64,000 nt of DNA from an uncultured Chitinophagales bacterium (GCA_964538485.1 CAZIHJ010000004.1:5836-69835); one strand, 5' to 3'. Shown: positions 10,051-48,609, counted from the stretch's first letter. Numbers and translations are program-made. The notes: generated by a model not told the origin, from the letters alone.

Positions 10051-11370
10051 TCACATGGTGTCGGATGCAAGGCGAAATCCCGTGAACTGCCAGCGCTTAT
10101 CACACTGGAAGAAGTTGCGGTACGTTGGCCGGATGTGTGTCCGCGGAGTAGCGCACGATCCTCCACGCAGAGTCATCTGGTTGATCATGAACTTTCCATT
10201 ATATTCCCCGAGAGGTCCCTTCTCCTGCTGGTAGCCAGGGTATGGTAAGTAGGAACTGCCCGTCCATTCCCACACATCACCATACATTTGCGAAATTCCC
10301 GACGTATCAACTCCCGGGGCATGACCGAGAGGAACGGGATGAAAGTTCTGCATTTCGAGAAAGTTTCCGCACGAAGCCGATGTCTTTACTGATGCTGCAG
10401 CCTTCTCCCACTCAACCTCCGTTGGCAATCGTTTGTCCGCCCATCGGGCGTACGCCGATGCTTCGTAATAGCTCACATGACTCACCGGTTCATCCTTTTC
10501 TATTGAGCGAATGCCTGACATTGTAACGATCCGCCATTCTCCATCTTTCTTCTCCCAGTACAATGGAGCTTGCCATCCATCTTTCGTCACGATCTCCCAC
10601 CCGTCCGAAAGCCAGAGAAGGGGATTCTGATAACCGCCGTCATTCATGAACTCCAGGAAATCTCCGCAAGTCACCAGACGATCCATCAACCCGAAGTCAT
10701 TCACAAACGCTTTGTGCCGGGGCAACTCATTATCCCAGGCGAAGCCTTTGTTTCCTGCACCCATTTCAAAGATGCCTCCCTGAATACCAATGAATTTCAC
10801 AGGAGAGAGAAGAGGTTTGGTCATTTGGGGTCGGGTCTGCTTGTACACGGGACGAAGGGGATTCGATGCGAGTAAATGCTTGATATCGGTAACCAGAAGC
10901 TCTTGGTGCTGTTGCTCATGGTGGAGACCCAATTCAATCAGCGCAGAAACCTTTCGGTAATCATTTTCTCCGACAGATTGAATAAGCGAACGCGTTTGTT
11001 CGTTGATTGCAGTCCGGTAATCGTAGACGTCCTTAACGGTCGGCCGTGAGAGTGTTCCCCGAATGTCCCTGCTCCATCGCTCACCGAAGCTCTGATAGTA
11101 AGAGTTGAAAAGAACGTAGTAATGTTCGTTGTACGGTTGATAGGTTCGGGAGAACTGCTGCAGGATCACCCGTTCAAAGAACCAGGTGGTATGGGCGAGA
11201 TGCCATTTCGGTGGACTGACATCAGCCATGGACTGGATGACGTAGTCTTCCGTAACAAGCGGTTGACAAATTTCTTCTGTCACCCGCCGGACGCTGTCAA
11301 ATGCAGCCAGCAGATCGTGTCGTTCCATTGGAGCCCTCATGATTGGATGCTGATGAATTCGTGTCTGCAT
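10051..11370 (-). CDS. egtB: Ergothioneine biosynthesis sulfoxide synthase EgtB (DinB_2 + FGE-sulfatase domains)
   Basis: 439 aa. KWHLAHTTWFFE, HHEQQHQELL (DinB-like iron site), RLPTEVEWEKAA and LRGGSCATPRTHIRPTYRNF..FTGFRLA (FGE-sulfatase C-domain) align with Mycobacterium EgtB landmarks. Confidence 0.8.
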   Translation of the reverse strand: MQTRIHQHPIMRAPMERHDLLAAFDSVRRVTEEICQPLVTEDYVIQSMADVSPPKWHLAHTTWFFERVILQQFSRTYQPYNEHYYVLFNSYYQSFGERWSRDIRGTLSRPTVKDVYDYRTAINEQTRSLIQSVGENDYRKVSALIELGLHHEQQHQELLVTDIKHLLASNPLRPVYKQTRPQMTKPLLSPVKFIGIQGGIFEMGAGNKGFAWDNELPRHKAFVNDFGLMDRLVTCGDFLEFMNDGGYQNPLLWLSDGWEIVTKDGWQAPLYWEKKDGEWRIVTMSGIRSIEKDEPVSHVSYYEASAYARWADKRLPTEVEWEKAAASVKTSASCGNFLEMQNFHPVPLGHAPGVDTSGISQMYGDVWEWTGSSYLPYPGYQQEKGPLGEYNGKFMINQMTLRGGSCATPRTHIRPTYRNFFQCDKRWQFTGFRLASDTM

Positions 11371-11546
11371 GAATGTGCTGAAGAAGTATCACGAAAGTGT
11401 CAACGCCAGGTAAACCTGTGGTGATAATTCGATGAGCATCGACATAGATCTTTTATCCCGGATGGACCGTTTCGTGACCATCGGCAGGCATATTGTATTC
11501 CATCAACAATGAACGATCACTACCACCAGTTAGCAAGGAGGCGGGA

Positions 11547-11756
11547 ATGCGAGTACATGAGGTATTGTTTGATGATTTTTTTGCAAGAAGAATCCCCGAT
11601 GAAGGATTCACGCTTGAGGAAGTCTATGAGGAATACTTTGGATTGATCCACGAGAGGCAGGAGAATCGCCCTGAATTGCATGGGCACGTTGTAACAATGG
11701 ATGGAAACGTTGTTGTCCCGGAATTGCGACCGTCAGTCGCACCGTTCGCAGCATAA
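11547..11756 (+). CDS. Small acidic hypothetical protein (69 aa)
   Basis: ATG MRVHEVLFDDFF... preceded by a strong RBS AAGGAGG with 6-nt spacing. Sub-ORF of listed ORF 11493..11756. No recognised domain. Confidence 0.35.
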   Translation: MRVHEVLFDDFFARRIPDEGFTLEEVYEEYFGLIHERQENRPELHGHVVTMDGNVVVPELRPSVAPFAA

Positions 11757-35938: not shown

Positions 35939-35980
35939 TTGACTTCGACGTGTTAATACATTATACTTTGTGATACAAAG
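35939..35980 (+). promoter_or_regulatory. Near-consensus sigma-70 promoter (TTGACT-N17-TATACT) overlapped by the palindrome CTTTGTGATACAAAG
   Basis: TTGACT at 35939-35944, 17-nt spacer, TATACT at 35962-35967. Perfect 6-bp-arm inverted repeat CTTTGT-gat-ACAAAG at 35966-35980 and a second half-site-like CTTTGT at 35983. The ATG of the membrane-protein gene is at 36010. Confidence 0.5.
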
Positions 35981-36009
35981 TGCTTTGTAACATAACCAAA
36001 GGACGCAGC

Positions 36010-36591
36010 ATGACTAACGCCAGTGAGGATCTTTCCGAGATTCGGTCCATGATGGAGAAGTCAACCCGGGTTTTATCCCTCAGCGGCCTGGCAGGAATTG
36101 CTATCGGCTGTTATGCATTCGCAGGATTCCTTTTTGCCCAGTATATCATCACCCGTTTGCCGAAAAATGAAATACTGCGCTATTTGCTTGGCGATGCGAT
36201 TATCGTGTTGGTTGGCGCGATTGTACTTGTTGTGTATTTCTCAAGCCGGATGGCAAAACAGAAGGGCCTTCCAATTTGGAATGCCACAACGAAACAACTT
36301 GTGGGTGAGCTTGCTTTGCCCCTAGCTGCAGGGGGAGTGTTTTGTGTCTCGCTCCTTGTTCACGAAGCATACACCTCCCTTCCTTCCGTGATGCTCATTT
36401 TTTACGGCCTCGCCCTATTCGCCGCCAGCAAGTACACAATCAAAGAAGTGCGCTTCCTCGGGTTGACTCAACTGGCGATTGGTGTCGCAGCGGCATTTGT
36501 CAACTCCCAGGGATTGAACCTCTGGGGCCTTGGCTTTGGTATCGTGCATATTCTGTTCGGCGTTCGTATCTATCTTGCCTATGAGCGATGA
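36010..36591 (+). CDS. Polytopic membrane protein (4 predicted TM), hypothetical
   Basis: Start at MTNASEDLSEIRSMMEK (AAAGGA RBS). Four hydrophobic helices. Stop overlaps the start of the next gene (ATGA). Confidence 0.55.
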   Translation: MTNASEDLSEIRSMMEKSTRVLSLSGLAGIAIGCYAFAGFLFAQYIITRLPKNEILRYLLGDAIIVLVGAIVLVVYFSSRMAKQKGLPIWNATTKQLVGELALPLAAGGVFCVSLLVHEAYTSLPSVMLIFYGLALFAASKYTIKEVRFLGLTQLAIGVAAAFVNSQGLNLWGLGFGIVHILFGVRIYLAYER

Positions 36592-36887
36592 GCAATCCGA
36601 TCGCAAATCTCAACAAGGTGTTCGAGAGCAGAGTCCGGCTCGGCCTCATGTCTGCCCTCGCAGTAAACGATGCACTTGACTTCAATTCCCTGAAGGAACT
36701 GCTCGGCACTACTGACGGCAATCTGGCTTCACATGCCGGTGCCCTCGAAGAAGAAGGTTACATCAAAGTTAGAAAGTCCTTTGTCGGAAAAAAAACCCGG
36801 ACAACCTATTCCATTACTGTTGCAGGGCAACAAGCATTCGGCGAGCATATCGATGCGCTTGTGCATCTTATCAGTATCTCACGATAA
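36588..36887 (+). CDS. Small winged-helix transcriptional regulator (PadR/MarR-like fold)
   Basis: 99 aa. ...FNSLKELLGTTDGNLASHAGALEEEGYIKVRKSFVGKKTRTTYSITVAGQQAF... has the wHTH pattern: recognition helix, then beta-hairpin wing with conserved G and basic residues. Confidence 0.6.
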   Translation: MSNPIANLNKVFESRVRLGLMSALAVNDALDFNSLKELLGTTDGNLASHAGALEEEGYIKVRKSFVGKKTRTTYSITVAGQQAFGEHIDALVHLISISR

Positions 36888-36916
36888 CTCAAACACTATT
36901 CTCTGGAGGGGATGTT

Positions 36917-38251
36917 ATGAATGACGGCTGGCTGAAACGCTCGGTGATGTTACGCATGATCATCATTGGATGCCTGACAATTGCAATGCTCGTACCATCT
37001 GTTCTGGTTATGGAACTCGTTTCTGATCGTGAGCAAACACGCGACAAGACAACGGCCGATGTGAGCGAAAAATGGGGAGAGGATCAAACTCTTGCAGGGC
37101 CAATATTGACCGTGCCGTTCAAACGCATGATACGGACTGAAGACGGAAATACACGATTCGTTATTGAACATGCGCAACTGCTACCGGAGAATGTGACATT
37201 TGCAGCAACTGCATCTCCGGAGGTACGGTACAGAGGCATTTATCAAGTGGTCCTGTACAATGCTGTGGTAAATATGCAGGCAACATTCTCACTGGAAGGT
37301 CTTGCCGGAATGAACATTGGTGAGGAGGATGTTCTGTGGGACGAGGCCTCTGCGGCCATTGGTATCAGCGATCTGAAGGGGGTGAAGGAAGCGGTCACAG
37401 TCCAATGGGGCGGCAAAGAGCTTACGGCTGAACCGGGTGTCGGTGCCTGCGATGCATTCCGGTCAGGGATCAACGTCAAACCGACAGTATCGGCAGGGTC
37501 AAAGCAGTACACATTTGCCGCCAGCCTCAATCTTAATGGAAGCAATGAATTGCAATTCGTTCCTACAGGAAAAAAAACACACGTGACCCTGACATCAACA
37601 TGGGAGTCACCAAGTTTCATCGGCCGGTTTCTGCCTGATAAACGGACAGTGCGGGAAGACGGATTCAGTGCGGAGTGGAATGTGTTGCATCTGAACCGAA
37701 ACTTCCCACAACAATGGATCAGCGAACGACAATCAAACGAGAACGCCAGGGTCGAGATCAACCCGTTCTCTTTCGGGGTAAAACTGATCTCGCCCAATGA
37801 CCAGTATCAACAGACAATGCGATCTGCGAAATATGCCATTATGTTCATCGCACTGACGTTTCTCGCCTTCTTCCTGACGGAGGTGCTCAACAAGAAAGTA
37901 GCCCATCCTGTCCAATATGCGCTCATAGGATTTGCCCTCGTGCTGTTCTACTGTCTGCTCCTTTCACTCTCCGAACACATGGCGTTCGCGACTGCCTATG
38001 TGATTTCCAGTGTGGCAATCATTCTCCTGGTTGCAGGGTACGCTCGCAGTGTCTTTGGCAGCTACAGCTTTGCAGCCACAGTTTCCTCTCTCCTTGCGCT
38101 GCTCTACACATTCTTGTTTGTCATTCTGCAGGAAGCGGACTATGCGTTGCTGGTTGGCAGCATCGGCTTATTTGCCGTTCTGGCACTTGTAATGTACTTA
38201 ACGAGAAAGATCGACTGGTACATGATTGGCAAGTCAGAGGATGTTGCGTAG
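36917..38251 (+). CDS. creD: Cell envelope integrity inner-membrane protein CreD
   Basis: 444 aa. TLTSTWESPSFIGRFLPDKRTVREDGFSAEWNV and PNDQYQQTMRSAKYAIMFIALTFLAFFLTEVL align with E. coli CreD (TLTSNWPHPSFLGDFLPAKR...; PADQYQLTDRATKYAILLIALTFMAFF...). Confidence 0.75.
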   Translation: MNDGWLKRSVMLRMIIIGCLTIAMLVPSVLVMELVSDREQTRDKTTADVSEKWGEDQTLAGPILTVPFKRMIRTEDGNTRFVIEHAQLLPENVTFAATASPEVRYRGIYQVVLYNAVVNMQATFSLEGLAGMNIGEEDVLWDEASAAIGISDLKGVKEAVTVQWGGKELTAEPGVGACDAFRSGINVKPTVSAGSKQYTFAASLNLNGSNELQFVPTGKKTHVTLTSTWESPSFIGRFLPDKRTVREDGFSAEWNVLHLNRNFPQQWISERQSNENARVEINPFSFGVKLISPNDQYQQTMRSAKYAIMFIALTFLAFFLTEVLNKKVAHPVQYALIGFALVLFYCLLLSLSEHMAFATAYVISSVAIILLVAGYARSVFGSYSFAATVSSLLALLYTFLFVILQEADYALLVGSIGLFAVLALVMYLTRKIDWYMIGKSEDVA

Positions 38252-38268: not shown

Positions 38269-38294
38269 CCCTCACCGGTGAAAGCTGGTGAGGG
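38269..38294. repeat. Copy 2 of the 26-nt hairpin element (CCCTCACCGGTGAAAGCTGGTGAGGG), between convergent creD and the S9 peptidase gene
   Basis: Differs from copy 1 (35773-35798) at one position (C vs T). The inner palindrome TCACCGGTGA is perfect. No T-run on either strand. Confidence 0.6.
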
Positions 38295-38361: not shown

Positions 38362-40452
38362 TTACTGCAGGAAACGAGCGGTATTTACCTCCAAATGCTT
38401 TCGGATGAACGCTTTGAGTTGAGGGGACGCCGGCGTGAGCCCCCCGGCGAAATGACGATCGGCAGCACTTTCGAGCAGGAACACCCAGGCTTCATCCCCC
38501 AGAGGGTCCACAGGTGTGTGGCCTGCGTCGGAGTCGATTAGAAGGACAACCTCCTTGCCGTTGCGTGTCGCCTCGGCGGCATAATGAGCGACGCTCTTGA
38601 CGGGCGTGCGATCATCATTCGCACCAGCCCAGAGATAAACCGGCGTGCGCATCTTTGACACCCAAGCCAGGGGGGATTCGCGTCGCATCTTTTTCCGCCA
38701 CGTTGAATCCGCGAACGGCAGGCCGTGCTGCGGGAAGCTGAGCGCCACGGGGGGACCGTTGCCACGCATCGACTCGCTTTCGTTGTCGACCTGCCACTGC
38801 TTCGCCCATCCATAATCTGTCGGGGGCGCACCCGCAAACGCGAAGCGGAATCGCTCCGGATAGTGGCTCACTGCCAGCAGGCTCAAATAGCCTCCGAATG
38901 AATGACCGGCAACGGCTTGCAGGTTGCGGTCGCTGATGCCATTTGTCAGGAGGAAATCAAGGCCGTCGATTACATCCGAGAGTACGCGACCATTTCCGAC
39001 GTCGCCGTTTGCCGCACGCTGATACCGAAGTCCGTAGCCGGTCGAGGCGCGGAAATTCGGGAGGAATACCACGTATCCGCGATTCGCCAACAACTGGAAG
39101 CGCGGATCGTAATTATCATAGAGCCGGGAAAATGGCCCGCCATGCAACCATGCGATCAGCGGGGCCTTTTCAAGTGGGGTTCCATGCGGCAGATAGACAT
39201 AGCCGTGGAGGATCATGCCATCGCGCGCGCGCCAACTCACGGGTTGGGCTGAGGTTAAATGATGCGGCGAAGGCATCGCCACCTTTGCGTCGTCCTGAAC
39301 AAACAGCGGTTGCAACCTGTCGCCTCCCGGTTCATACAGAAAGTGACGGGTCAACGGCCAGTTGGATTGCTCTGCCTTCACCAGCCAGGTACGGCCATCA
39401 TTCGCGTGCATTAACTCCAGATTGGCATCGGGAAGATGTCGTTGCAATGCGGTGAGGTGTGACTTCATGCTTTCGCTGTTGCCATACCAACGGCGCTTAT
39501 CACCATAATAGGCAATGGCCTGCCAATCTGCATTGGCATCATTCCATATCAGGTCCCCGGCATCGGCGATTCCGGCAGGATCACGATGCACTATCTTCCA
39601 TTGTGCCGTACCGGCTTGCCAGCGCTGCAGCACCATCTTGTCTTCACCACGGTGCGAAAGCATCCAGAGCAGATCGGCGTGCCCACCGTATCCGAGGAGT
39701 TCGAAGAACTCTATACCACTGAAGCGAGCCAGTTCGCTCACACCATCTTTGGTGTAACGCCGGATGACTGTATCGTAGTCCGGTCCATCGAAGGCCGCGG
39801 CAAAGGCAAGAGATCCATCCGTGCTCAACAATACTTTGCGCAGTGGCAAAGCGGCCTCGTGCATTAATCGGGTCTTGCCTGAATCATTAACGAGCAGATA
39901 ACGGTAACGCAGCATCTGATTCTTTTCAATCCGCTCGGCCACAATCGCATAGACCGGTGCATGCGCATCCACGCCGAAAAAGCTTTGCCGTCGGGAACGG
40001 TCCCATTTCAGTATGCGTTTCGCCTTACCCGTTGCCGGTGCAATAACGGCAAGGCCCTGCTCATCGGCCATCCATATCCTGTTTCCATCGCCAGACCATC
40101 TGTGTTCTGAGTTGCGCACATCGACAAGGAGGCGAACTCGCGTTCCATCCGCTACTTCCTGCAGCCACAAATCCGCACCCTGTTCGTTGCGTTTTAGAAA
40201 GGAGAGATAACGGCCATCCGGCGACAACTGCACGCTACCGATCACGGGGTGCTGCAGCAGCGCAGCACGAGCAATCACCGGTGGTTTCGTTTTGTTGACC
40301 GCCAGTTGAGCGGATTTCCGCAATGCGATACGCGCTGATTCAACTTGTCCGCCTGCCAGGCAATGCCTACCCAAAAACAGGGCCAGCAATGCGCACACTA
40401 TGATAGAAATGCTCCTGACTTGCCCTCCGTATTTGACTCCCATGGGGTTCAC
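38362..40452 (-). CDS. S9 family serine peptidase (prolyl oligopeptidase/dipeptidyl aminopeptidase-like), exported
   Basis: 696 aa. Signal-like N-terminus, beta-propeller N-domain, catalytic Ser in GHSFGGYLSL, C-terminal Asp/His. Start overlaps the upstream permease stop (ATGA). Confidence 0.8.
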   Translation of the reverse strand: MNPMGVKYGGQVRSISIIVCALLALFLGRHCLAGGQVESARIALRKSAQLAVNKTKPPVIARAALLQHPVIGSVQLSPDGRYLSFLKRNEQGADLWLQEVADGTRVRLLVDVRNSEHRWSGDGNRIWMADEQGLAVIAPATGKAKRILKWDRSRRQSFFGVDAHAPVYAIVAERIEKNQMLRYRYLLVNDSGKTRLMHEAALPLRKVLLSTDGSLAFAAAFDGPDYDTVIRRYTKDGVSELARFSGIEFFELLGYGGHADLLWMLSHRGEDKMVLQRWQAGTAQWKIVHRDPAGIADAGDLIWNDANADWQAIAYYGDKRRWYGNSESMKSHLTALQRHLPDANLELMHANDGRTWLVKAEQSNWPLTRHFLYEPGGDRLQPLFVQDDAKVAMPSPHHLTSAQPVSWRARDGMILHGYVYLPHGTPLEKAPLIAWLHGGPFSRLYDNYDPRFQLLANRGYVVFLPNFRASTGYGLRYQRAANGDVGNGRVLSDVIDGLDFLLTNGISDRNLQAVAGHSFGGYLSLLAVSHYPERFRFAFAGAPPTDYGWAKQWQVDNESESMRGNGPPVALSFPQHGLPFADSTWRKKMRRESPLAWVSKMRTPVYLWAGANDDRTPVKSVAHYAAEATRNGKEVVLLIDSDAGHTPVDPLGDEAWVFLLESAADRHFAGGLTPASPQLKAFIRKHLEVNTARFLQ

Positions 40453-42266
40453 TTATGCGTAGCGCGGGGCTCAAGACACACAAGGCTGAGAAACGCGGGA
40501 AGGCCAAGCACCAAACAACTCGCCAGCCACAAGCGCCTGCGCGCCGGATTGACCGGCACTCCACGCAACCACCAGTGGCCCAGTGCAAACGAGAGAAGCA
40601 TCAATCCCGCTGCCACCGGATAGAACACCGGCACCACGGGTAACGGTGCGAGTTGTGGTGGCTGCGTCAGCCCTTTATCGAGTGCGGTCTCGGGCCACCT
40701 AGCCAGGAGGTATAATACCGGCGAGAGCCACCACGACGCTCTCGGAACCAGTGGTGCATCCCCGATACTGATGCTGACATTGCTGATATTTCTGACTTCA
40801 CCCACCACAGTTGACGTGCCACTCTCATTGATATGCACGACTTGCTGCCATTGCTCGGCCAGGCTTTCGAAACCATCGAGCTCCCCCGGCGTGAAATAGA
40901 AGACCGAAACCAACCAGCCGTCCAGCAGCTCAACAATGCTCACCGACGGCACTTCCCTCTCTTCGATGGCCAATGGAAGCTGCCAGTCGAGCTGCAAAGG
41001 AGCGAACTTCGAAGCCGCCCGCCTGTCTTCCCGGTAGGCGAGCAGACGCTGATTCGTCAGTACCAGGGTGCGATCGAGAGCGCGCACGGGGTGGCTGACG
41101 AACCATTCGCCGCGTGGCAGATGAAGGAGTTCATGCTGGCGTTGGGTTTCGTCGTCGATTGCAAAGAGCACCCCGGAGCTCATACTGAAGATGGGGATTT
41201 GGGTGAACGCGTGCTGATCACCTGCGCCGTTTGCGCCCCACCATCCGCGATCATCGCCGGTCTTCAGGTCGCGCCCGTGAAACATCATCCGGTCGTGGCT
41301 GAACGTCCAATCGATCCCGCGCTTTGCATCCCACCACCGTCCGCGCAGATTGGAGATCTGGTTTCGCACCGGGAATTGCCCGAGGTCGGGCTGCAGATCA
41401 GCAACTTCCAGCAATGGTATTTGCTCACGCCATTCGGCAGCCCGCGGATCCTTACTCGCCCCGAGCCCCCGAATAAAACCATTCTGGCTAAACGAACGCG
41501 CCGACGCAGCCGCATTCTCATCCGTTGCCAAAACGGTCACCGCCGGGTAGTTGTTCTCCGCCATGAGTTCCACAACACTGACGGCCACTTTGCTCAGATG
41601 GAACACGATCAGGAAAAACACCAGTTGCAGCGGCAACACGGTGAGCAGCAGCACGCTGGATTGTGCGATCGGTGAGGATCGATCGGCACGGAAGCTATGC
41701 ATTGCAACCCAGGTAAGCCAAGCAAGGGAGACGAATACCGGCAAGAGTAACGACCACACCGAGGCGAGATGCATCGCCAACAGAAACGGCACAACCAAAA
41801 GGGCAACCGTGAGTCTGTTCCAGCTGACGCTGGCATGGGCCCCGGCGAGCCAGGCCATCATCGTGAACGCCAGCATATGGAACAGCGCGACGTAATGACG
41901 AATGTCGACCACATGCGTCGTGAACAGATCGGTCGCAAGTACGAACATCAGCAAAGGCAGGAAGATGGCCACGGTCAGCATGGCAAGAGCCGATAAGGCC
42001 AACGCGGCAAAAATCCGTGGCGGTGCCAATGGACGATGAATAAGCCATAACCACTGGCTGGGCTTGCGATAGCTCCCCACCTGCACCAGAGCCAGCATGA
42101 GGCCTATCAGCATGGAGATTACCAGCATCATACCCTGGTCGTCGACCGGCATTTGGAGCACATTGGTGATGCGTGACAGAAAAAGCAACATAAGCCCATT
42201 GCAGGCCGTAACGATCAACATGGCCCGGCGGAAACGGCGCCACTCCGAGAAGAAGAGGTCTTTCAT
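40449..42266 (-). CDS. Polytopic membrane protein: ABC-2-type permease-like N-terminal TM bundle plus ~300-aa extracytoplasmic domain and C-terminal TM helices
   Basis: 605 aa. Six N-terminal hydrophobic helices, large hydrophilic middle (residues ~230-530), two C-terminal helices. Sits between an ABC ATPase and the S9 peptidase with 4-nt overlaps on both sides. The antisense 280-aa ORF 40833..41675 is rejected. Confidence 0.6.
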   Translation of the reverse strand: MKDLFFSEWRRFRRAMLIVTACNGLMLLFLSRITNVLQMPVDDQGMMLVISMLIGLMLALVQVGSYRKPSQWLWLIHRPLAPPRIFAALALSALAMLTVAIFLPLLMFVLATDLFTTHVVDIRHYVALFHMLAFTMMAWLAGAHASVSWNRLTVALLVVPFLLAMHLASVWSLLLPVFVSLAWLTWVAMHSFRADRSSPIAQSSVLLLTVLPLQLVFFLIVFHLSKVAVSVVELMAENNYPAVTVLATDENAAASARSFSQNGFIRGLGASKDPRAAEWREQIPLLEVADLQPDLGQFPVRNQISNLRGRWWDAKRGIDWTFSHDRMMFHGRDLKTGDDRGWWGANGAGDQHAFTQIPIFSMSSGVLFAIDDETQRQHELLHLPRGEWFVSHPVRALDRTLVLTNQRLLAYREDRRAASKFAPLQLDWQLPLAIEEREVPSVSIVELLDGWLVSVFYFTPGELDGFESLAEQWQQVVHINESGTSTVVGEVRNISNVSISIGDAPLVPRASWWLSPVLYLLARWPETALDKGLTQPPQLAPLPVVPVFYPVAAGLMLLSFALGHWWLRGVPVNPARRRLWLASCLVLGLPAFLSLVCLEPRATHK

Positions 42267-43243
42267 CTCATTCCCCTCCCCTCTTCTGGCACCGGTGTTG
42301 CGTGACCGCGGGCCAGGAAGGCATTCACGGCCCGGTCCAGATTTGCCGTACCCCGATTGAGCCTGCGGGCACCCTGCCGCTCGAGCAACACCCCGAAGGC
42401 ATCCTCTTGGTCGAGCACCACAAAGTGGAATAAGCCGTCAATGCGCTGGCACTGTAACACACCGGGGAGTGTGTCAAGTCCGGGTACGGCGGATGGGAAA
42501 TCGGCGATCCACAACTGCACCCGCTCGCAGAATTCGTCTGGCGGCGACATGTGCATCAGCCGGCCCTGCTCAAGGATGATCAGGTTGTCGGCGAGCCTCT
42601 CGATCTCCTCCATCTGATGGGAACAATAGATGATCGTGGTATCGGTGTTTTCCACCGAAGCGAGGACCGTCTCAAGAAAGGCACGTTTGGCCACGACATC
42701 CAGCCCGAGCGTCGGCTCGTCGAGAATCAGCAACTCCGGTTCCTGGGCGAGTGCCATCGCAAGGTTCACACCGGCACGCTCGCCGCGAGAGAGTTCGGCA
42801 ATCCGCTGCCCGGACTGTACATGGAAATGGCCGATGACGCCCCGGTAGCGCTCATCATTCCATTGCGGGTACTGGTGGCGTTGCATCGACACGACTTCGC
42901 CGACACGCAACCAGGAAGGAACGCTGTGTTCCTCGTTGACGAAGCCGATACGTGCACGCTCGTTTTCGGTGAGCGCAGCGCAATCGTGTCCGAGGATCCT
43001 TGCCCTTCCACCGGTGGGCGACTGAAAGCCAAGAAGCACGCGGAATAATGAGGTCTTGCCGGCGCCGTTGGCACCAACGATGGCATGAATCCGGCCGCGC
43101 GGAATGCGTAGAGTCAGTTGGTTCAACGCCCTTTTGCGTCCGTAGTACAGGTCGAGTCGGTCGGTCTCGATCACATAGTCTGATACTTCAGGAGCTGATG
43201 ATACCGCGCTTTTCGGAAGCGCGTAAAGATTGGGGATAGACAT
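42263..43243 (-). CDS. ABC transporter ATP-binding protein
   Basis: Start at MSIPNLYAL (AGGAAC RBS). Walker A GANGAGKTS, signature LSRGERAGV, Walker B LLILDEPT. The ORF upstream of 43243 in the same frame is an N-terminal over-extension. Confidence 0.85.
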   Translation of the reverse strand: MSIPNLYALPKSAVSSAPEVSDYVIETDRLDLYYGRKRALNQLTLRIPRGRIHAIVGANGAGKTSLFRVLLGFQSPTGGRARILGHDCAALTENERARIGFVNEEHSVPSWLRVGEVVSMQRHQYPQWNDERYRGVIGHFHVQSGQRIAELSRGERAGVNLAMALAQEPELLILDEPTLGLDVVAKRAFLETVLASVENTDTTIIYCSHQMEEIERLADNLIILEQGRLMHMSPPDEFCERVQLWIADFPSAVPGLDTLPGVLQCQRIDGLFHFVVLDQEDAFGVLLERQGARRLNRGTANLDRAVNAFLARGHATPVPEEGRGMR

Positions 43244-43251
43244 AGTGTTCC

Positions 43252-43662
43252 TTATGCGGATCGTTTGGCAAGATACGGAGCCAAGGTGTCGCTCACCTGT
43301 TCGAGAACATGTTCGCACGGGAAGTCCAGCCCGACTACTTCGGCAACGAAGGCCTCCACAGCGAGCGCCAAGCGCCGTTCTCTTTCGGCCTGCGAAAAGC
43401 GTTGGCGCGGCGCGGCCACGAATAATCCCAGACTCTGGCGAGCATCCAGCCAACCTTCATTGGTCAGTTCGGCATAAGCATTGGCCACGGTTTTCGGGTT
43501 AATCGTCAGTTGCAGTGCAAGCCCGCGAATAGTGGGCAGCTGTGAGCCCACAGGCAGCTCGCCGCTTGCAATCTGCAAACGAATACCGTCGGTGATTTGG
43601 CGAGTGATCGGGCGCGGGTCGATCGGGCTGATCTGTAGAAAAACTGGGACTGTGCGAGACAT
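43252..43662 (-). CDS. GntR family transcriptional regulator, YtrA-like short subfamily
   Basis: 136 aa. N-terminal wHTH ...ITDGIRLQIASGELPVGSQLPTIRGLALQLTINPKTVANAYAEL. Short C-terminal effector region typical of the YtrA subfamily that controls ABC exporters. Confidence 0.85.
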   Translation of the reverse strand: MSRTVPVFLQISPIDPRPITRQITDGIRLQIASGELPVGSQLPTIRGLALQLTINPKTVANAYAELTNEGWLDARQSLGLFVAAPRQRFSQAERERRLALAVEAFVAEVVGLDFPCEHVLEQVSDTLAPYLAKRSA

Positions 43663-43670
43663 CGGGTTTC

Positions 43671-43712
43671 CTTGTACCTATTGTACCGGTTATGATGGTA
43701 CAAATGGTACGG
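43671..43712. promoter_or_regulatory. Extended dyad-symmetric operator immediately upstream of the GntR gene start
   Basis: cTTGTACCtaTTGTACCggttatgatGGTACAAatGGTACgg has nested inverted repeats with two GTAC half-sites per arm, in the GT-N-AC style of GntR/YtrA operators. Lies 9-50 nt upstream of the GntR ATG (43662), in the 310-bp divergent region shared with the 43974 outer-membrane protein gene. Confidence 0.6.
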
Positions 43713-43973
43713 AAGATGATCATGAATGTCAAGAAGGATCATTGACGGTTTGCGTTTGACGGACCCTCACGCAAGGAGATGTCCTCCCAGCCTCGGTTGC
43801 AGACTCCGCCGGATCATTGCTTGCATTTTTCTGGCTCATTCTGTAATTTCGTCCGGAATTTTATACTATTTGGATTCAATGTATTCTCCATACAGTTCAT
43901 TGCCGGCTCATCCCTTCCGACTTCACCAGTCCACTAACCCACTATTCAAAAACCAAAACGAAAGGAGCTCCAC

Positions 43974-44648
43974 ATGAGCTCACGCATGATGATCCTTTTG
44001 CTTTGCTTCTTTTTTGTGGCCGCCCCCTCACTGGTGTTTGCCCAGGATGAAGAGCCCTGCGACTGGGGTTATTTATTCAGTTGGCAGCCCAACTTCGATG
44101 TTAGCAAGTATTATGTGGGGAGCGTATACAACAGCGCGAACACCAAACTTCCACTCGTGGGAATCGGGGCAGAACGATATCTTTCTAAAAACTGGGGCGT
44201 GCAGCTTGGTCTGAATTTCGGGTTGGACAATTCCAGCCAGGATGATACCACGAGGACAGTGGACAACAATGCGCTTGATCTCGGATTGAAGATCGGGGCG
44301 AACTACTACTTCCAGGGGAAAGACAAGACAATCGCACCTTACGTTGGCGGATGGGCAAGCTATTCTCTCTATAACGAGACACTGACAGACAAACCTGTTA
44401 CTGGGACTGAATTCAAGAGAGAGTACTCCGCAAGCACGATCGGAATTGGCGTTACGGGAGGAGCATACTGGCAACCATGGGATGATACCGATCTTGATTT
44501 TGGTTTTTATTACAATCTCGGGGTGATGATCACGCCATCGAGTACGCTTAAGATCACCTCAGGCGGACAGACCTCTGAGACAGAAGGGCCCAGCAGAATA
44601 ACAGCAGGCGATTGTGGGGGCGGGATCAACCTACGGTTGAGCTTCTAA
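43974..44648 (+). CDS. Outer-membrane beta-barrel protein (OmpA-like/opacity-type porin fold)
   Basis: 224 aa. Signal peptide MSSRMMILLLCFFFVAAPSLVFAQ, alternating strands, C-terminal F (..INLRLSF). Confidence 0.6.
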   Translation: MSSRMMILLLCFFFVAAPSLVFAQDEEPCDWGYLFSWQPNFDVSKYYVGSVYNSANTKLPLVGIGAERYLSKNWGVQLGLNFGLDNSSQDDTTRTVDNNALDLGLKIGANYYFQGKDKTIAPYVGGWASYSLYNETLTDKPVTGTEFKREYSASTIGIGVTGGAYWQPWDDTDLDFGFYYNLGVMITPSSTLKITSGGQTSETEGPSRITAGDCGGGINLRLSF

Positions 44649-44761: not shown

Positions 44762-45053
44762 AATGCTCTTCGACTCCCCTCAGCACATGATATCTTGATT
44801 ATTATGTTGTAGCAGCCCACGACTTTATTCGTGAGACGCGGAAACAAAGCCAGCCGCACAAGAACCTGCGTCGCTGGTTTGTCTCTTCTCATTGATCTCC
44901 ACTATTATCGTAGGAATCTCTCCACCACCTCAACATTCTCGATTATGGTTCCATAAAATCTAGCAACAAATGTCGAATCAGTCCGTATTTTATCCTCACA
45001 TTACGTGGTCACATTTCAACTCTCAGGTACTACTACACGAGGCCAAAACAGAA

Positions 45054-45608
45054 ATGAAGAAGTTCGTAGCAGCGACTGCCGTGGTTATTACAGTCTTTGC
45101 CGGCACAATCCGCGGATACTCACAGCATTGGTCGCTCGGAGGGAATACGGGTTTGTCTGTGCTTGGTGGGTCTCCCGGTTTTCAGCTGACTCCAACGGCA
45201 GAAATGCTCATCAATCGAAATATCAGCATCGGATCCGAGTTCAGTATCAATACGCAGTATGGCGCGCCGCTGATATGGTATCCGTATTTCAAGTACTATT
45301 TCAGTATTCACGGATCACAAGTGCGGCCGTTTGCCAGTGCCGGACCTGTACTGGCATTGAACGTCCCAAATGGCCCCTGTTTTGGATTTCTCTTTGGCGG
45401 GGGATTCAAAGTTCCTGTTGCACGGAGATTGTATTTTGCTCCAAATGTACTCCTCGGTCCGGTCTTCAATTATGCGGGGGGCGCTTTCCCCTTCATCCTC
45501 CGGGGATATTACTGGGGATTTGAAACGTATGGTTTGTCGACTTACAAGATCCCCAGTGTGACAGTATTTGCATTCTCCTTGAGGGGAGGCATTCACTACG
45601 AGATATGA
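45054..45608 (+). CDS. Outer-membrane beta-barrel protein
   Basis: Start at MKKFVAATAVVITVFAGTIRGYSQ (signal peptide). 8-10 amphipathic beta strands. Confidence 0.55.
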   Translation: MKKFVAATAVVITVFAGTIRGYSQHWSLGGNTGLSVLGGSPGFQLTPTAEMLINRNISIGSEFSINTQYGAPLIWYPYFKYYFSIHGSQVRPFASAGPVLALNVPNGPCFGFLFGGGFKVPVARRLYFAPNVLLGPVFNYAGGAFPFILRGYYWGFETYGLSTYKIPSVTVFAFSLRGGIHYEI

Positions 45609-46618: not shown

Positions 46619-47680
46619 TTACAAGGATGGCTGCTGTTGCGTTAGGCAGTGAAGTGTACCGAATCCCCAGACGAGGTCAACGGCATGAATGCCAATCACG
46701 GGACGGTCGGTGATCAATTCTGAAAGGATGCCTAACGCTGTCCGGTCGTTCAGATCGTTGAATGTCGGCACAAGCACAGCAGCATTGGTGATATAGAAAT
46801 TCGCGTAGCTCGCCGGAAGTCGGACACCGTCGAACACCAGCGGTGCAGGCATCGGCAGTTTCACCACTTCCGGTCGCGATCCATGCTCCAACCGCACATC
46901 TTGAAGACGGTCCTGGTTTTCCTTCAAGACTGTGTAATTCACGTCCACGGAATTCTTCTCGTCACAGATGACAATTGTTGTAGGATTTATGAATCGGGCG
47001 AGATCGTCAATATGGCCGTGGGTGTCATCGCCGGCAATCCCTTTGCCAAGCCAGAGAATGTTGGTAACACCGAGCGAATCGCGTAGCATTTGCTCTGTTT
47101 CAATCCGGCTGAGCCCGGGATTGCGTACCTGCGTCTTCTGATCAAGAAGGCATTCTTCTGTTGTCAGCAAAGAACCGCGTCCATTCACATCAATAGCGCC
47201 CCCTTCAAGGACAAACGACTTCCCGTGCCATCGCGGTTCAAACAACCGGAGGCCGAGTGCCTTTGCAGCACGCGCATGAATCTTCGCATCCTTCTTATGA
47301 TTGGCGTATTTCGCCCAGCCGACAAATCCGAAGTCATTGATTGCCACTTCATGTGCACTCCGGACAAACATCGGACCAAAGTCACGTGTCCATCCCCTGT
47401 CCGTCGGGAAACGAAAGAACTCCACACGGGAAATGTCAACGCCTACCTTTGACAAGATACGTTGTGCCGATCGCTCGTGCTCCTTTGACTCCACAATGAT
47501 GCGGGCCTTTTCGCCCGGAATAAGTGCACGTACAATCTCGCCGTAGACCCACGGGATTGGTGTGAATTTCCCCGGCCAATCGTTTTTATTGTGCGGCCAA
47601 CCGAACCATGTCGCTTCGTGGTGTTCCCACTCCGCGGGCATGTGGAAACCAAGAGATGCGGGTGTTGCGTTACTGGGCAC
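46619..47680 (-). CDS. aguA: Agmatine deiminase
   Basis: 353 aa. MPAEWEHHEATWFGWPHN start motif (alternative start at 47641). Porphyranase-type PAD fold with conserved C-terminal Cys (GTLHCLTQQ). Confidence 0.8.
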   Translation of the reverse strand: MPSNATPASLGFHMPAEWEHHEATWFGWPHNKNDWPGKFTPIPWVYGEIVRALIPGEKARIIVESKEHERSAQRILSKVGVDISRVEFFRFPTDRGWTRDFGPMFVRSAHEVAINDFGFVGWAKYANHKKDAKIHARAAKALGLRLFEPRWHGKSFVLEGGAIDVNGRGSLLTTEECLLDQKTQVRNPGLSRIETEQMLRDSLGVTNILWLGKGIAGDDTHGHIDDLARFINPTTIVICDEKNSVDVNYTVLKENQDRLQDVRLEHGSRPEVVKLPMPAPLVFDGVRLPASYANFYITNAAVLVPTFNDLNDRTALGILSELITDRPVIGIHAVDLVWGFGTLHCLTQQQPSL

Positions 47681-48609
47681 TATTGCTTCGGACTCCAGGG
47701 TTCGTCGTTCAGAAAGCGGCGGGTGATATCTCCGTACGCATCGATGCGCCGGTCGCGCAGGAATGGCCAGTTGCGGCGAATCTCTTCCATGTGGGCCGTA
47801 TCTACTTCGGCAAGAAGGATTTCCTCCTTATCGGTGGATGCCTCGGCGAGGATCACTCCTTGCGGGTCGGCTATGAATGACGATCCCCAGAACTCGATAC
47901 CGGGGCCGCCCTCCTTCGGTATTTCATGACCTGTGCGATTTGCGGCGGCGACGTACACTCCGTTGGCAATCGCATGTCCTCGCTGCACTGTCCGCCATGC
48001 CTCACGCTGCGCCACACCGTATTGGGTTTTTTCATGAGGATGCCACCCTATCGCCGTCGGATAGAACAACACGTCGGCCCCATTAAGTGCAGTCAGTCTT
48101 GCTCCCTCCGGATACCATTGGTCCCAGCAAATCAACGTGCCAATGCGGCCAACAGATGTGTCCACGGCCTTGAAACCAAGGTCTCCTGGAGTGAAGTAGA
48201 ATTTCTCATAGTATGACGGATCGTCCGGGATATGCATCTTTCGGTAGAATCCCGCAATCGCTCCATCAGTATTGATAATGGCGGCACTGTTATGATACAC
48301 CCCCACTGCACGTTTTTCAAAGACCGGAGCAATCACTACAACTCCCAACAACCGTGCTGCTGTTGCCAGTGCCTCCGTACTCGGACCGGGTACAGGTTCA
48401 GCGAGATCAAAGTGTGCTGAGTCTTCACGCTGGCAGAAATATTGCGATCGAAACAACTCCGGCAAGCAAATGACCTTCGCCCCTTTCTTCGCGGCAGCGC
48501 GCACCTTCTCAACAGCGCGACGCAAGTTGTCTGCAGGATCTGGAGTAACAGACATCTGAATAAGACCGATTGTGTAACGACGGGGATGCTGAAGAGTGGT
48601 CACGGGCAC
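47680..48609 (-). CDS. aguB: N-carbamoylputrescine amidase (carbon-nitrogen hydrolase family)
   Basis: 309 aa. IGLIQMSV...ICLPELF...catalytic Cys in TLICWDQWYPE. Glu/Lys/Cys triad context typical of N-carbamoylputrescine amidohydrolase. Confidence 0.8.
   Translation of the reverse strand: MPVTTLQHPRRYTIGLIQMSVTPDPADNLRRAVEKVRAAAKKGAKVICLPELFRSQYFCQREDSAHFDLAEPVPGPSTEALATAARLLGVVVIAPVFEKRAVGVYHNSAAIINTDGAIAGFYRKMHIPDDPSYYEKFYFTPGDLGFKAVDTSVGRIGTLICWDQWYPEGARLTALNGADVLFYPTAIGWHPHEKTQYGVAQREAWRTVQRGHAIANGVYVAAANRTGHEIPKEGGPGIEFWGSSFIADPQGVILAEASTDKEEILLAEVDTAHMEEIRRNWPFLRDRRIDAYGDITRRFLNDEPWSPKQ

Follow-up and report, generated by a model that had tools for sequence, protein, structure and literature searches.

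The 64,000-nucleotide (nt) stretch of DNA from an uncultured Chitinophagales bacterium analysed here (GCA_964538485.1 CAZIHJ010000004.1:5836-69835; hereafter the window, on whose whole length positions are counted) carries on its minus strand, at 38362-43662, a cassette of four genes encoding a GntR-family regulator, an ATP-binding cassette (ABC) ATPase, a 605-amino-acid (aa) membrane protein that we call the permease, and an exported serine peptidase of family S9. We propose, at a probability of about 0.5, that the cassette serves diderm bacteria as an inducible defence of the extrude-and-degrade type, directed at small peptides or peptide-like compounds that are active on or in the inner membrane; among the candidate substrates are bacteriocins, lipopeptides and other antimicrobial peptides. 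The genes, in the direction of transcription, are:

43252-43662, minus strand: GntR-family regulator, 136 aa (PF00392, E 1e-11, residues 20-82)
42263-43243, minus strand: ABC ATPase, 326 aa from an ATG start (PF00005, E 5e-26)
40449-42266, minus strand: permease, 605 aa (no Pfam or NCBIfam match at E <= 0.01)
38362-40452, minus strand: exported S9 serine peptidase, 696 aa from a GTG start (PF00326, E 6e-28, residues 449-646)

The four genes form one operon-like unit. Read from the sequence, the regulator and ATPase genes are separated by an 8-nt gap, the ATPase and permease genes overlap in ATGA, and the permease and peptidase genes overlap in GTGA. An earlier reading made from the sequence alone (the sequence-only reading) had described a single operon with an 8-nt junction and two ATGA-type overlaps; the operon (tight junctions, co-directional minus-strand genes, recurring gene order), the gap and both 4-nt overlaps stand, but the second overlap is GTGA, not ATGA. 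The peptidase start is the GTG at 40452, with an alternative ATG 9 nt further in at 40443. For the ATPase, the TTG at 43453 that gives the longest open reading frame was set aside, as it would overlap the regulator gene by ~200 nt.

Homologous loci were collected by a scan of one genome per species, which gave 77 loci from five diderm phyla: Bacteroidota, Planctomycetota, Gemmatimonadota, Acidobacteriota and Proteobacteria (alpha, beta and gamma). The order regulator-ATPase-permease is kept in 75 of the 77, that is, in each locus with enough contig upstream to show it; the two exceptions are contig ends, one beginning within the permease gene (L063) and the other just before the ATPase gene (L060). 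Chance adjacency of the four genes was rejected, the arrangement being conserved in 77 loci. The permease itself has 189 indexed homologues, nearly all of 600-610 aa, all annotated as hypothetical and without a Pfam domain; no exact copy of the window's own 605-aa sequence turned up on public contigs. A profile search of 1.84 billion cluster representatives returned 399 members at E <= 1e-3 (236 at E <= 1e-30), among which the architecture is nearly constant; the family is small and tight.

Within the window, GC content is 0.56-0.58 across 38-44 kb and ~0.50-0.51 on both flanks. When the four closest loci were compared with the whole window by tblastx, homology was confined to 38362-43697 and the flanks were without a match. 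Permease identities across phyla are 52-68%, and for a polytopic membrane protein this level, together with the GC step and the differing surroundings, indicates that the cassette is a discrete, horizontally transferred unit, a behaviour that would be typical of resistance cassettes. The anti-phage defence models of PADLOC gave no system match; the regulator, permease and peptidase had no match to them, and the ATPase showed only generic ATPase similarity.

Linkage of the peptidase to the permease

The downstream enzyme, with its signal-peptide-like N-terminus and PF00326 domain, is predicted to be an exported, catalytically intact S9 serine peptidase (S9C-like); the sequence-only reading had likewise held it to be an exported member of the prolyl-oligopeptidase family.

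40354-40452, minus strand: signal peptide of the S9 peptidase, residues 1-33 (h-region 14-27; predicted cleavage between CLA and GG)

The catalytic triad, Ser518 (in GHSFGG, codon 38899-38901), Asp613 and His645, has the Ser-Asp-His order and GxSxGG motif, and it is invariant in 54 cassette-linked homologues, 48 of which have an N-terminal hydrophobic export segment, many with AxA-type sites after it. Among solved proteins the S9 peptidase is closest to aminoacyl- and acylaminoacyl-peptidases (5l8s, 8wt1, 1ve6), and S9C matches reach down to 1.6e-23. The N-terminal ~400 residues, where S9 enzymes have a beta-propeller that restricts access to oligopeptides, gave only weak repeat-like matches (8wt1 domains 1-2; NF033523 at residues 73-140). 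Membership of the lasso-peptide isopeptidases (NF033523) was rejected, at 30 bits against a cut-off of 400 and over an N-terminal fragment only.

Linkage was counted over the 70 complete loci with enough downstream sequence. An S9 gene lies directly downstream of the permease gene, on the same strand, in 53 of them. In six more, all Massilia, the same slot is occupied by an exported S15 enzyme (PF02129, 3e-49, plus PepX_C; X-Pro-dipeptidyl-peptidase/CocE-NonD); reading frames in these high-GC loci were chosen by GC content at third codon positions. A PF00144 hydrolase (S12, beta-lactamase family) is found within or beside the cassette in 6/70 loci and is the sole hydrolase in three; it may lie between regulator and ATPase (L007, L012), divergently beside the regulator (L075, L077) or nearby (L070, L051).

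The cluster-representative search also revealed in-frame fusions of permease and S9 peptidase, in at least five clusters (1240-1305 aa). These follow regulator and ATPase genes in all four cases whose context was looked up. One of them, P0247, has the same sequence in three independent assemblies; the DNA reads open through its junction, and upstream of it is the cassette operator described below. Between their two modules the fusions have retained a linker with positive charge and a segment like a signal peptide. Under either reading of the C-terminal permease helix (see below), the S9 module would be in the periplasm beside the large permease domain. Non-orthologous replacement in the same slot and gene fusion together argue for a functional partnership between transporter and peptidase, probably a physical one, and the natural fusions make such a complex directly testable. 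The peptidase linkage noted by the sequence-only reading thus extends to relatives, through S9 conservation, S15 replacement, S12-family recruitment and natural fusion.

Some variant loci are worth recording. (i) The P0247 fusion locus (L078, NCBI GCA_020442465.1) has at 1-1958, immediately upstream of the fusion cassette, an S15 gene and a gene joining PF00144 to tetratricopeptide repeats (TPR), so that all three serine-hydrolase classes of the module occur in one locus. (ii) A 962-aa protein without Pfam matches is encoded after the fusion in L078, L079 and L080. (iii) In L048, a peptidase-less locus, the gene after the permease (10231-11580, plus strand) weakly matches Peptidase_S41, the family to which the nisin-resistance protein belongs (E 3e-4, sub-threshold, not counted). 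(iv) Several other peptidase-less loci have an AraC-family regulator with DUF6597 just downstream of the permease (L035, L037 and L038, ~10519-11424, plus strand; L077, 10489-11319, minus strand), and in L035 a glutathione S-transferase gene is also downstream.

Predicted exporter, regulator and operator

An AlphaFold2 model of the permease, built from a 101-sequence alignment, is confident (predicted local distance difference test 89.5, predicted template modelling score 0.86) and divides the protein into three parts:

41559-42266, minus strand: type V (ABC-2-like) transmembrane domain, residues 1-236
40632-41558, minus strand: periplasmic domain with conserved motif W-T-F-S-H-D-x-M, residues 237-545
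40449-40631, minus strand: C-terminal helix pair, residues 546-605

By hydropathy and the model, residues 1-236 comprise an N-terminal amphipathic helix and ~7 membrane helices, with a conserved cytoplasmic YRKPSQWLWLIHRP segment as the putative coupling helix. The next ~310 aa are hydrophilic, with 2-3 helices and then ~16 beta strands (~four blades) resembling part of a beta-propeller; in the model this domain is propeller-like, without a close solved relative. Two hydrophobic helices follow (548-598), with an Arg-rich loop between them and a kink in the second at a conserved G-x-P; this last helix may span the membrane or be re-entrant. By the positive-inside rule, the large domain faces the periplasm, and the N-terminus, the YRKPSQWLWLIHRP segment and the FRADR and RRR loops lie on the cytoplasmic side. 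The topology proposed earlier, six transmembrane helices, ~300 extracytoplasmic residues and two more helices, is thus essentially right, hydropathy and model agreeing, and the extracytoplasmic placement of the large domain is upheld by the charge distribution.

The modelled fold is that of a type V (ABC-2) exporter, an N-terminal interface helix plus a 6-helix bundle. It is not the type VII fold of the BceAB/FtsX peptide-resistance permeases, which have their extracellular domain between defined helices and a BceRS-type two-component system as partner: FtsX, YtrF and BceB scored only ~7 in comparison with the 605-aa protein. At the sequence level the family stands apart, with no match to the curated ABC-2 permease families (Pfam ABC2_membrane clan, NCBIfam) at E <= 0.01, and none between a profile of 101 family members and PDB sequences at E <= 1. 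No curated family was matched, and so no characterised transporter family with a non-peptide substrate, the finding that the sequence-only reading had named as fatal to a peptide role. The family adds to the type V ABC repertoire an uncharacterised group of membrane proteins, ~400 clusters at 50% identity, that is without a Pfam model.

Over 61 full-length members (24-81% identity), invariant residues fall in the interface helix (E8, R11), the putative coupling helix (Q62, W72, L75, R78, P79), the periplasmic mouth (P104, D121, H124) and the WTFSHDxM motif (W320, F322, H324, M327), with F192, S515 and W580 in addition. Two of these sites stand out: W-T-F-S-H-D-x-M (residues 320-327; window 41286-41309) and the D121/H124 pair at the periplasmic end of the bundle (residues 121-124; 41895-41906) are invariant or nearly so among members down to 24% identity, and this conserved His/Asp/Ser cluster might serve in binding or even in catalysis. 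Three loci encode two tandem permease paralogues before the S9 peptidase (L023, 7992-11630; L072, 7953-11736; and the P0171 locus, where the second copy is the S9-fused one). Such pairs are expected if the transmembrane protein is normally dimeric, and they suggest heterodimeric versions of the transporter.

The ABC ATPase has intact motifs in translation (Walker A GANGAGKT, signature LSRGE, Walker B LLILDEP, H-loop SHQ) and an extension of ~80 aa C-terminal to its nucleotide-binding domain. Its best NCBIfam matches are the DrrA subfamily (TIGR01188, 7e-43) and PmtA (5e-37), both below curated cut-offs, and its best solved matches are nucleotide-binding domains of the ABCA family. By these similarities it is placed in the DrrA/ABCA lineage, which fits the type V exporter class.

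Members of the YtrA subfamily of GntR regulators have an N-terminal winged-helix GntR domain, a very short C-terminal domain (~50 aa) for a total of ~120-135 aa, and linkage to an ABC operon with a palindromic operator. The cassette regulator has the PF00392 domain, a length of 136 aa, and the conserved ABC linkage and palindrome; it aligns nearly end to end with solved short (113-134 aa) GntR regulators (3neu, 3by6, 4r1h, 2du9) and has sub-threshold NCBIfam matches to Rv1152 and PmtR. Its predicted assignment as a YtrA-subfamily repressor agrees with the sequence-only reading. Upstream of its gene lie:

43727-43732, minus strand: -35 hexamer TTGACA (promoter scan; 10/12 match together with the -10)
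43704-43709, minus strand: -10-like hexamer TACCAT (consensus match only)
43682-43702, minus strand: 21-bp palindromic operator TGTACC-ATCATAACC-GGTACA (TGTAC-N11-GTACA), presumed repressor site

The hexamers make up a sigma-70-like promoter (TTGACA-17-TACCAT, 43732-43704). The operator starts 2 nt past the -10 hexamer and is flanked by extra half-site-like copies, GTACCA and GGTACA. To see how far this arrangement is shared, the 110 nt 5' of the regulator gene were aligned across loci (74 regions). The motif TGTA[CA]-N11-[TG]TACA occurs in 64/74 of them, against 0.035 expected from shuffles, and the remaining 10 have one-mismatch variants of the palindrome; in 58/74 a TTGAC motif precedes the operator by 15-34 nt. 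The operator is also upstream of the L078 fusion cassette. Its position just past the -10 element would fit autorepression by the GntR protein, and its conservation offers a simple reporter for finding inducing compounds.

Proposed function and its alternatives

In the mechanism that we envisage, a dimer of the YtrA-type regulator on TGTAC-N11-GTACA would repress all four genes when substrate is absent. Two ATPase subunits and two 605-aa proteins would assemble into a type V exporter that expels the substrate from the cytoplasmic membrane or the cytoplasm into the periplasm, under the propeller-like domains. In a diderm cell the outer membrane would retain the expelled peptide, hence the need for a periplasmic peptidase; the peptide trapped there would be cleaved by the co-expressed serine oligopeptidase, S9 here, S15 or S12-family in other lineages, and covalently fused to the permease in some. 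Induction would probably resemble that of PmtR or MbrR, by analogy, with substrate binding the repressor or the working ATPase sequestering it. If this is right, Gram-negative environmental bacteria would expel inner-membrane peptides and then destroy them in the periplasm, preventing re-insertion. The cassette would be a self-regulated, horizontally mobile module of Lysobacter, Massilia, Sphingomonas, Planctomycetota, Acidobacteriota and Gemmatimonadota in soil and water, and as such a candidate reservoir of peptide-antibiotic resistance.

Parts of this scheme have experimental precedents. PmtCD confers immunity and takes amphipathic peptides out of the membrane (PMC9974410, PMC7527219), and PmtD, of the phenol-soluble modulin exporter and immunity system PmtR-PmtABCD of Staphylococcus aureus, shares the type V fold class with the 605-aa protein. 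The cassette is not an equivalog of that system: its ATPase scores 127.6 bits against a PmtA cut-off of 350 and its regulator 34.3 against a PmtR cut-off of 200. Pmt permeases are ~250 aa, without the periplasmic propeller-like domain or the extra C-terminal helices, and the Pmt system has no peptidase; its host is monoderm, and the toxin that it exports is the cell's own. In Streptococcus salivarius, bacteriocins are countered by the ABC extruder MbrAB together with the CaaX protease MbrX; both are under the control of the YtrA-type MbrR, which is released when the ATPase sequesters it (bioRxiv 10.64898/2026.02.18.706565). This system, MbrR-MbrAB-MbrX(-MbrH), shares with the cassette the combination of YtrA-type repressor, ABC extruder and protease in a multi-component peptide defence, and its palindromic operator with transporter-coupled derepression is a plausible induction model. 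It differs in that the protease is a membrane CaaX/CPBP enzyme rather than an exported S9, S15 or S12 serine hydrolase, the genes form a regulon rather than one overlapping operon, the permease architecture is unrelated, and the system is found in Bacillota only.

The nsr operon of Streptococcus agalactiae combines the S41 peptidase NSR, the BceAB-type ABC transporter NsrFP and NsrRK in resistance to peptide antibiotics (PMC5583591). Like the cassette, it joins in one operon an exported or anchored peptide-cleaving serine peptidase and an ABC transporter with a large extracellular domain; its peptidase belongs to S41, not to S9, S15 or S12. The type V systems NosDFY and CcmAB, which work with periplasmic partners, are at only ~13% sequence identity; those partners are haem-handling proteins and a beta-helix chaperone for copper or sulfur, and both systems are without a fused periplasmic domain, peptidase or YtrA regulator. 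The claim of the sequence-only reading that the combination has no described precedent was therefore too broad, since operons pairing a protease with ABC-mediated resistance are described in Gram-positives (NSR/NsrFP, PMC5583591; MbrR-MbrAB-MbrX, bioRxiv 10.64898/2026.02.18.706565). The strategy of repressor, ABC pump and protease is already familiar. A search of the literature on the GntR/ABC/S9 combination and on fused ABC-2/peptidase systems found no description of the cassette system; undescribed are the membrane-protein family with its periplasmic domain, the interchangeable or fused pairing with S9, S15 or S12 enzymes, and the diderm hosts.

Several observations weigh against the defence proposal. 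No detectable adjacent peptidase was found in 8/70 complete loci, so the pump can exist without one. The co-variation of permease and S9 identities (Spearman 0.81), which speaks for a coupling of the two, mainly reflects joint inheritance and not necessarily physical contact. The S9C and S15 enzymes usually cut unmodified linear oligopeptides, but cyclic or modified forms are common among antimicrobial peptides; cell-wall DD-peptidases belong to the S12 family as well, and this would fit envelope remodelling equally well. Finally, no match to the permease came up in a tblastn search of 72,556 plasmids, and no direct or inverted repeats flank the cassette.

The envelope-remodelling aspect can be developed into an alternative in which, as in FtsEX, LolCDE or NosDFY, ATP hydrolysis moves the propeller-like domain rather than a substrate and thereby activates or positions the serine hydrolase. 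Its substrate would then come from the cell's own envelope, for example stem peptides of peptidoglycan, remnants of lipoproteins or signal peptides, or envelope proteins that have misfolded. The large periplasmic domain, the fusions that tether the hydrolase to that domain, the analogy with NosDFY, and the kinship of the PF00144 (S12) partners with DD-peptidases and penicillin-binding-protein-like enzymes all speak for such mechanotransmission, as does the tie of the YtrA-regulated ytrBCDEF operon of B. subtilis to cell-wall stress and wall thickness (PMC8060467, PMC12772383). We nevertheless judge it unlikely: a patchy, transferred distribution and a dedicated repressor would be unusual for core envelope housekeeping, and the fold is type V rather than type VII. 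S9 and S15 enzymes are not known to act as cell-wall hydrolases, which counts against it further.

Two other readings keep a peptide as the substrate. Export coupled to the turnover, or maturation by proteolysis, of a peptide that the cell itself secretes, such as a signal or a ribosomally synthesized and post-translationally modified peptide (RiPP), was one of the possibilities raised by the sequence-only reading, and it could appeal to PmtABCD, the nearest named relative of the ATPase, which exports the cell's own peptides, and to S9 enzymes that mature or linearise some RiPPs (compare the weak 30-bit N-terminal match to NF033523). That match is far below its 400-bit cut-off, and the cassette is transferred as exactly four genes, unaccompanied by any precursor, biosynthetic or modification gene, with no conserved small open reading frame seen within its borders and with flanks that differ in every host inspected, so that we find maturation highly improbable. 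Slighter still are the chances of a nutritional role, in which proline-rich oligopeptides would be degraded in the periplasm and the products handled by the ABC system. The S9 and S15 families do include X-Pro dipeptidyl peptidases of peptide catabolism, going by Pfam names, but a type V fold without a substrate-binding protein is the architecture of an exporter or extractor, YtrA-type repressors go with export and stress modules, and amino-acid or peptide catabolic genes are not linked to the cassette.

The extrude-and-degrade proposal also has a bolder form, which we consider doubtful and offer as speculation. Here the type V extractor would dock an interchangeable serine peptidase (S9, S15 or S12, in some cases fused to it) through paired half-propeller-like periplasmic domains, making a new class of ABC-hydrolase nanomachine of diderm bacteria. 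Peptides taken from the membrane would be handed over directly, and ATP-driven extraction would be coupled to proteolysis on the other side of the inner membrane. The strictly conserved D121/H124 and W-T-F-S-H-D-x-M would then be a hand-over or binding site or even a second catalytic site, and the whole would act as a widely transferred environmental determinant of peptide-antibiotic resistance.

Genes around the cassette

The neighbours of the cassette are unrelated to it. On one side are an HTH_34/membrane/CreD trio and a glycogen-debranching enzyme, whose nearest named relative, at 68% identity, is from candidate division KSB1. The other side has small beta-barrel proteins of the outer membrane, polyamine genes and a DUF2911 protein. 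One further feature lies just past the end of the S9 gene:

38269-38294, no strand assigned: GC-rich hairpin with an 11-bp stem, between the convergent S9 and CreD genes (pattern match)

The hairpin is a likely candidate for a bidirectional terminator. The tight trio beyond it (35980-38251, plus strand) encodes a 203-aa multi-pass membrane protein without a Pfam match, a 99-aa HTH_34 winged-helix protein whose gene overlaps that of the membrane protein by 4 nt (36588), and the inner-membrane protein CreD (PF06123, E 2e-158); the trio resembles a further small module of regulator plus membrane protein.

On the opposite flank, divergent from the cassette, two genes on the plus strand encode small predicted outer-membrane beta-barrel proteins, the first (43974-44648) matching OMP_b-brl and the second (44970-45608) of similar composition without a Pfam match. 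This pair lies outside the region of homology with other cassette loci, and the two are therefore probably host genes. Further along, the minus-strand genes at 46619-48609 encode an agmatine deiminase (PF04371) and an N-carbamoylputrescine-amidase-like CN hydrolase, overlapping by 1 base at 47680; they are a putrescine-synthesis pair.

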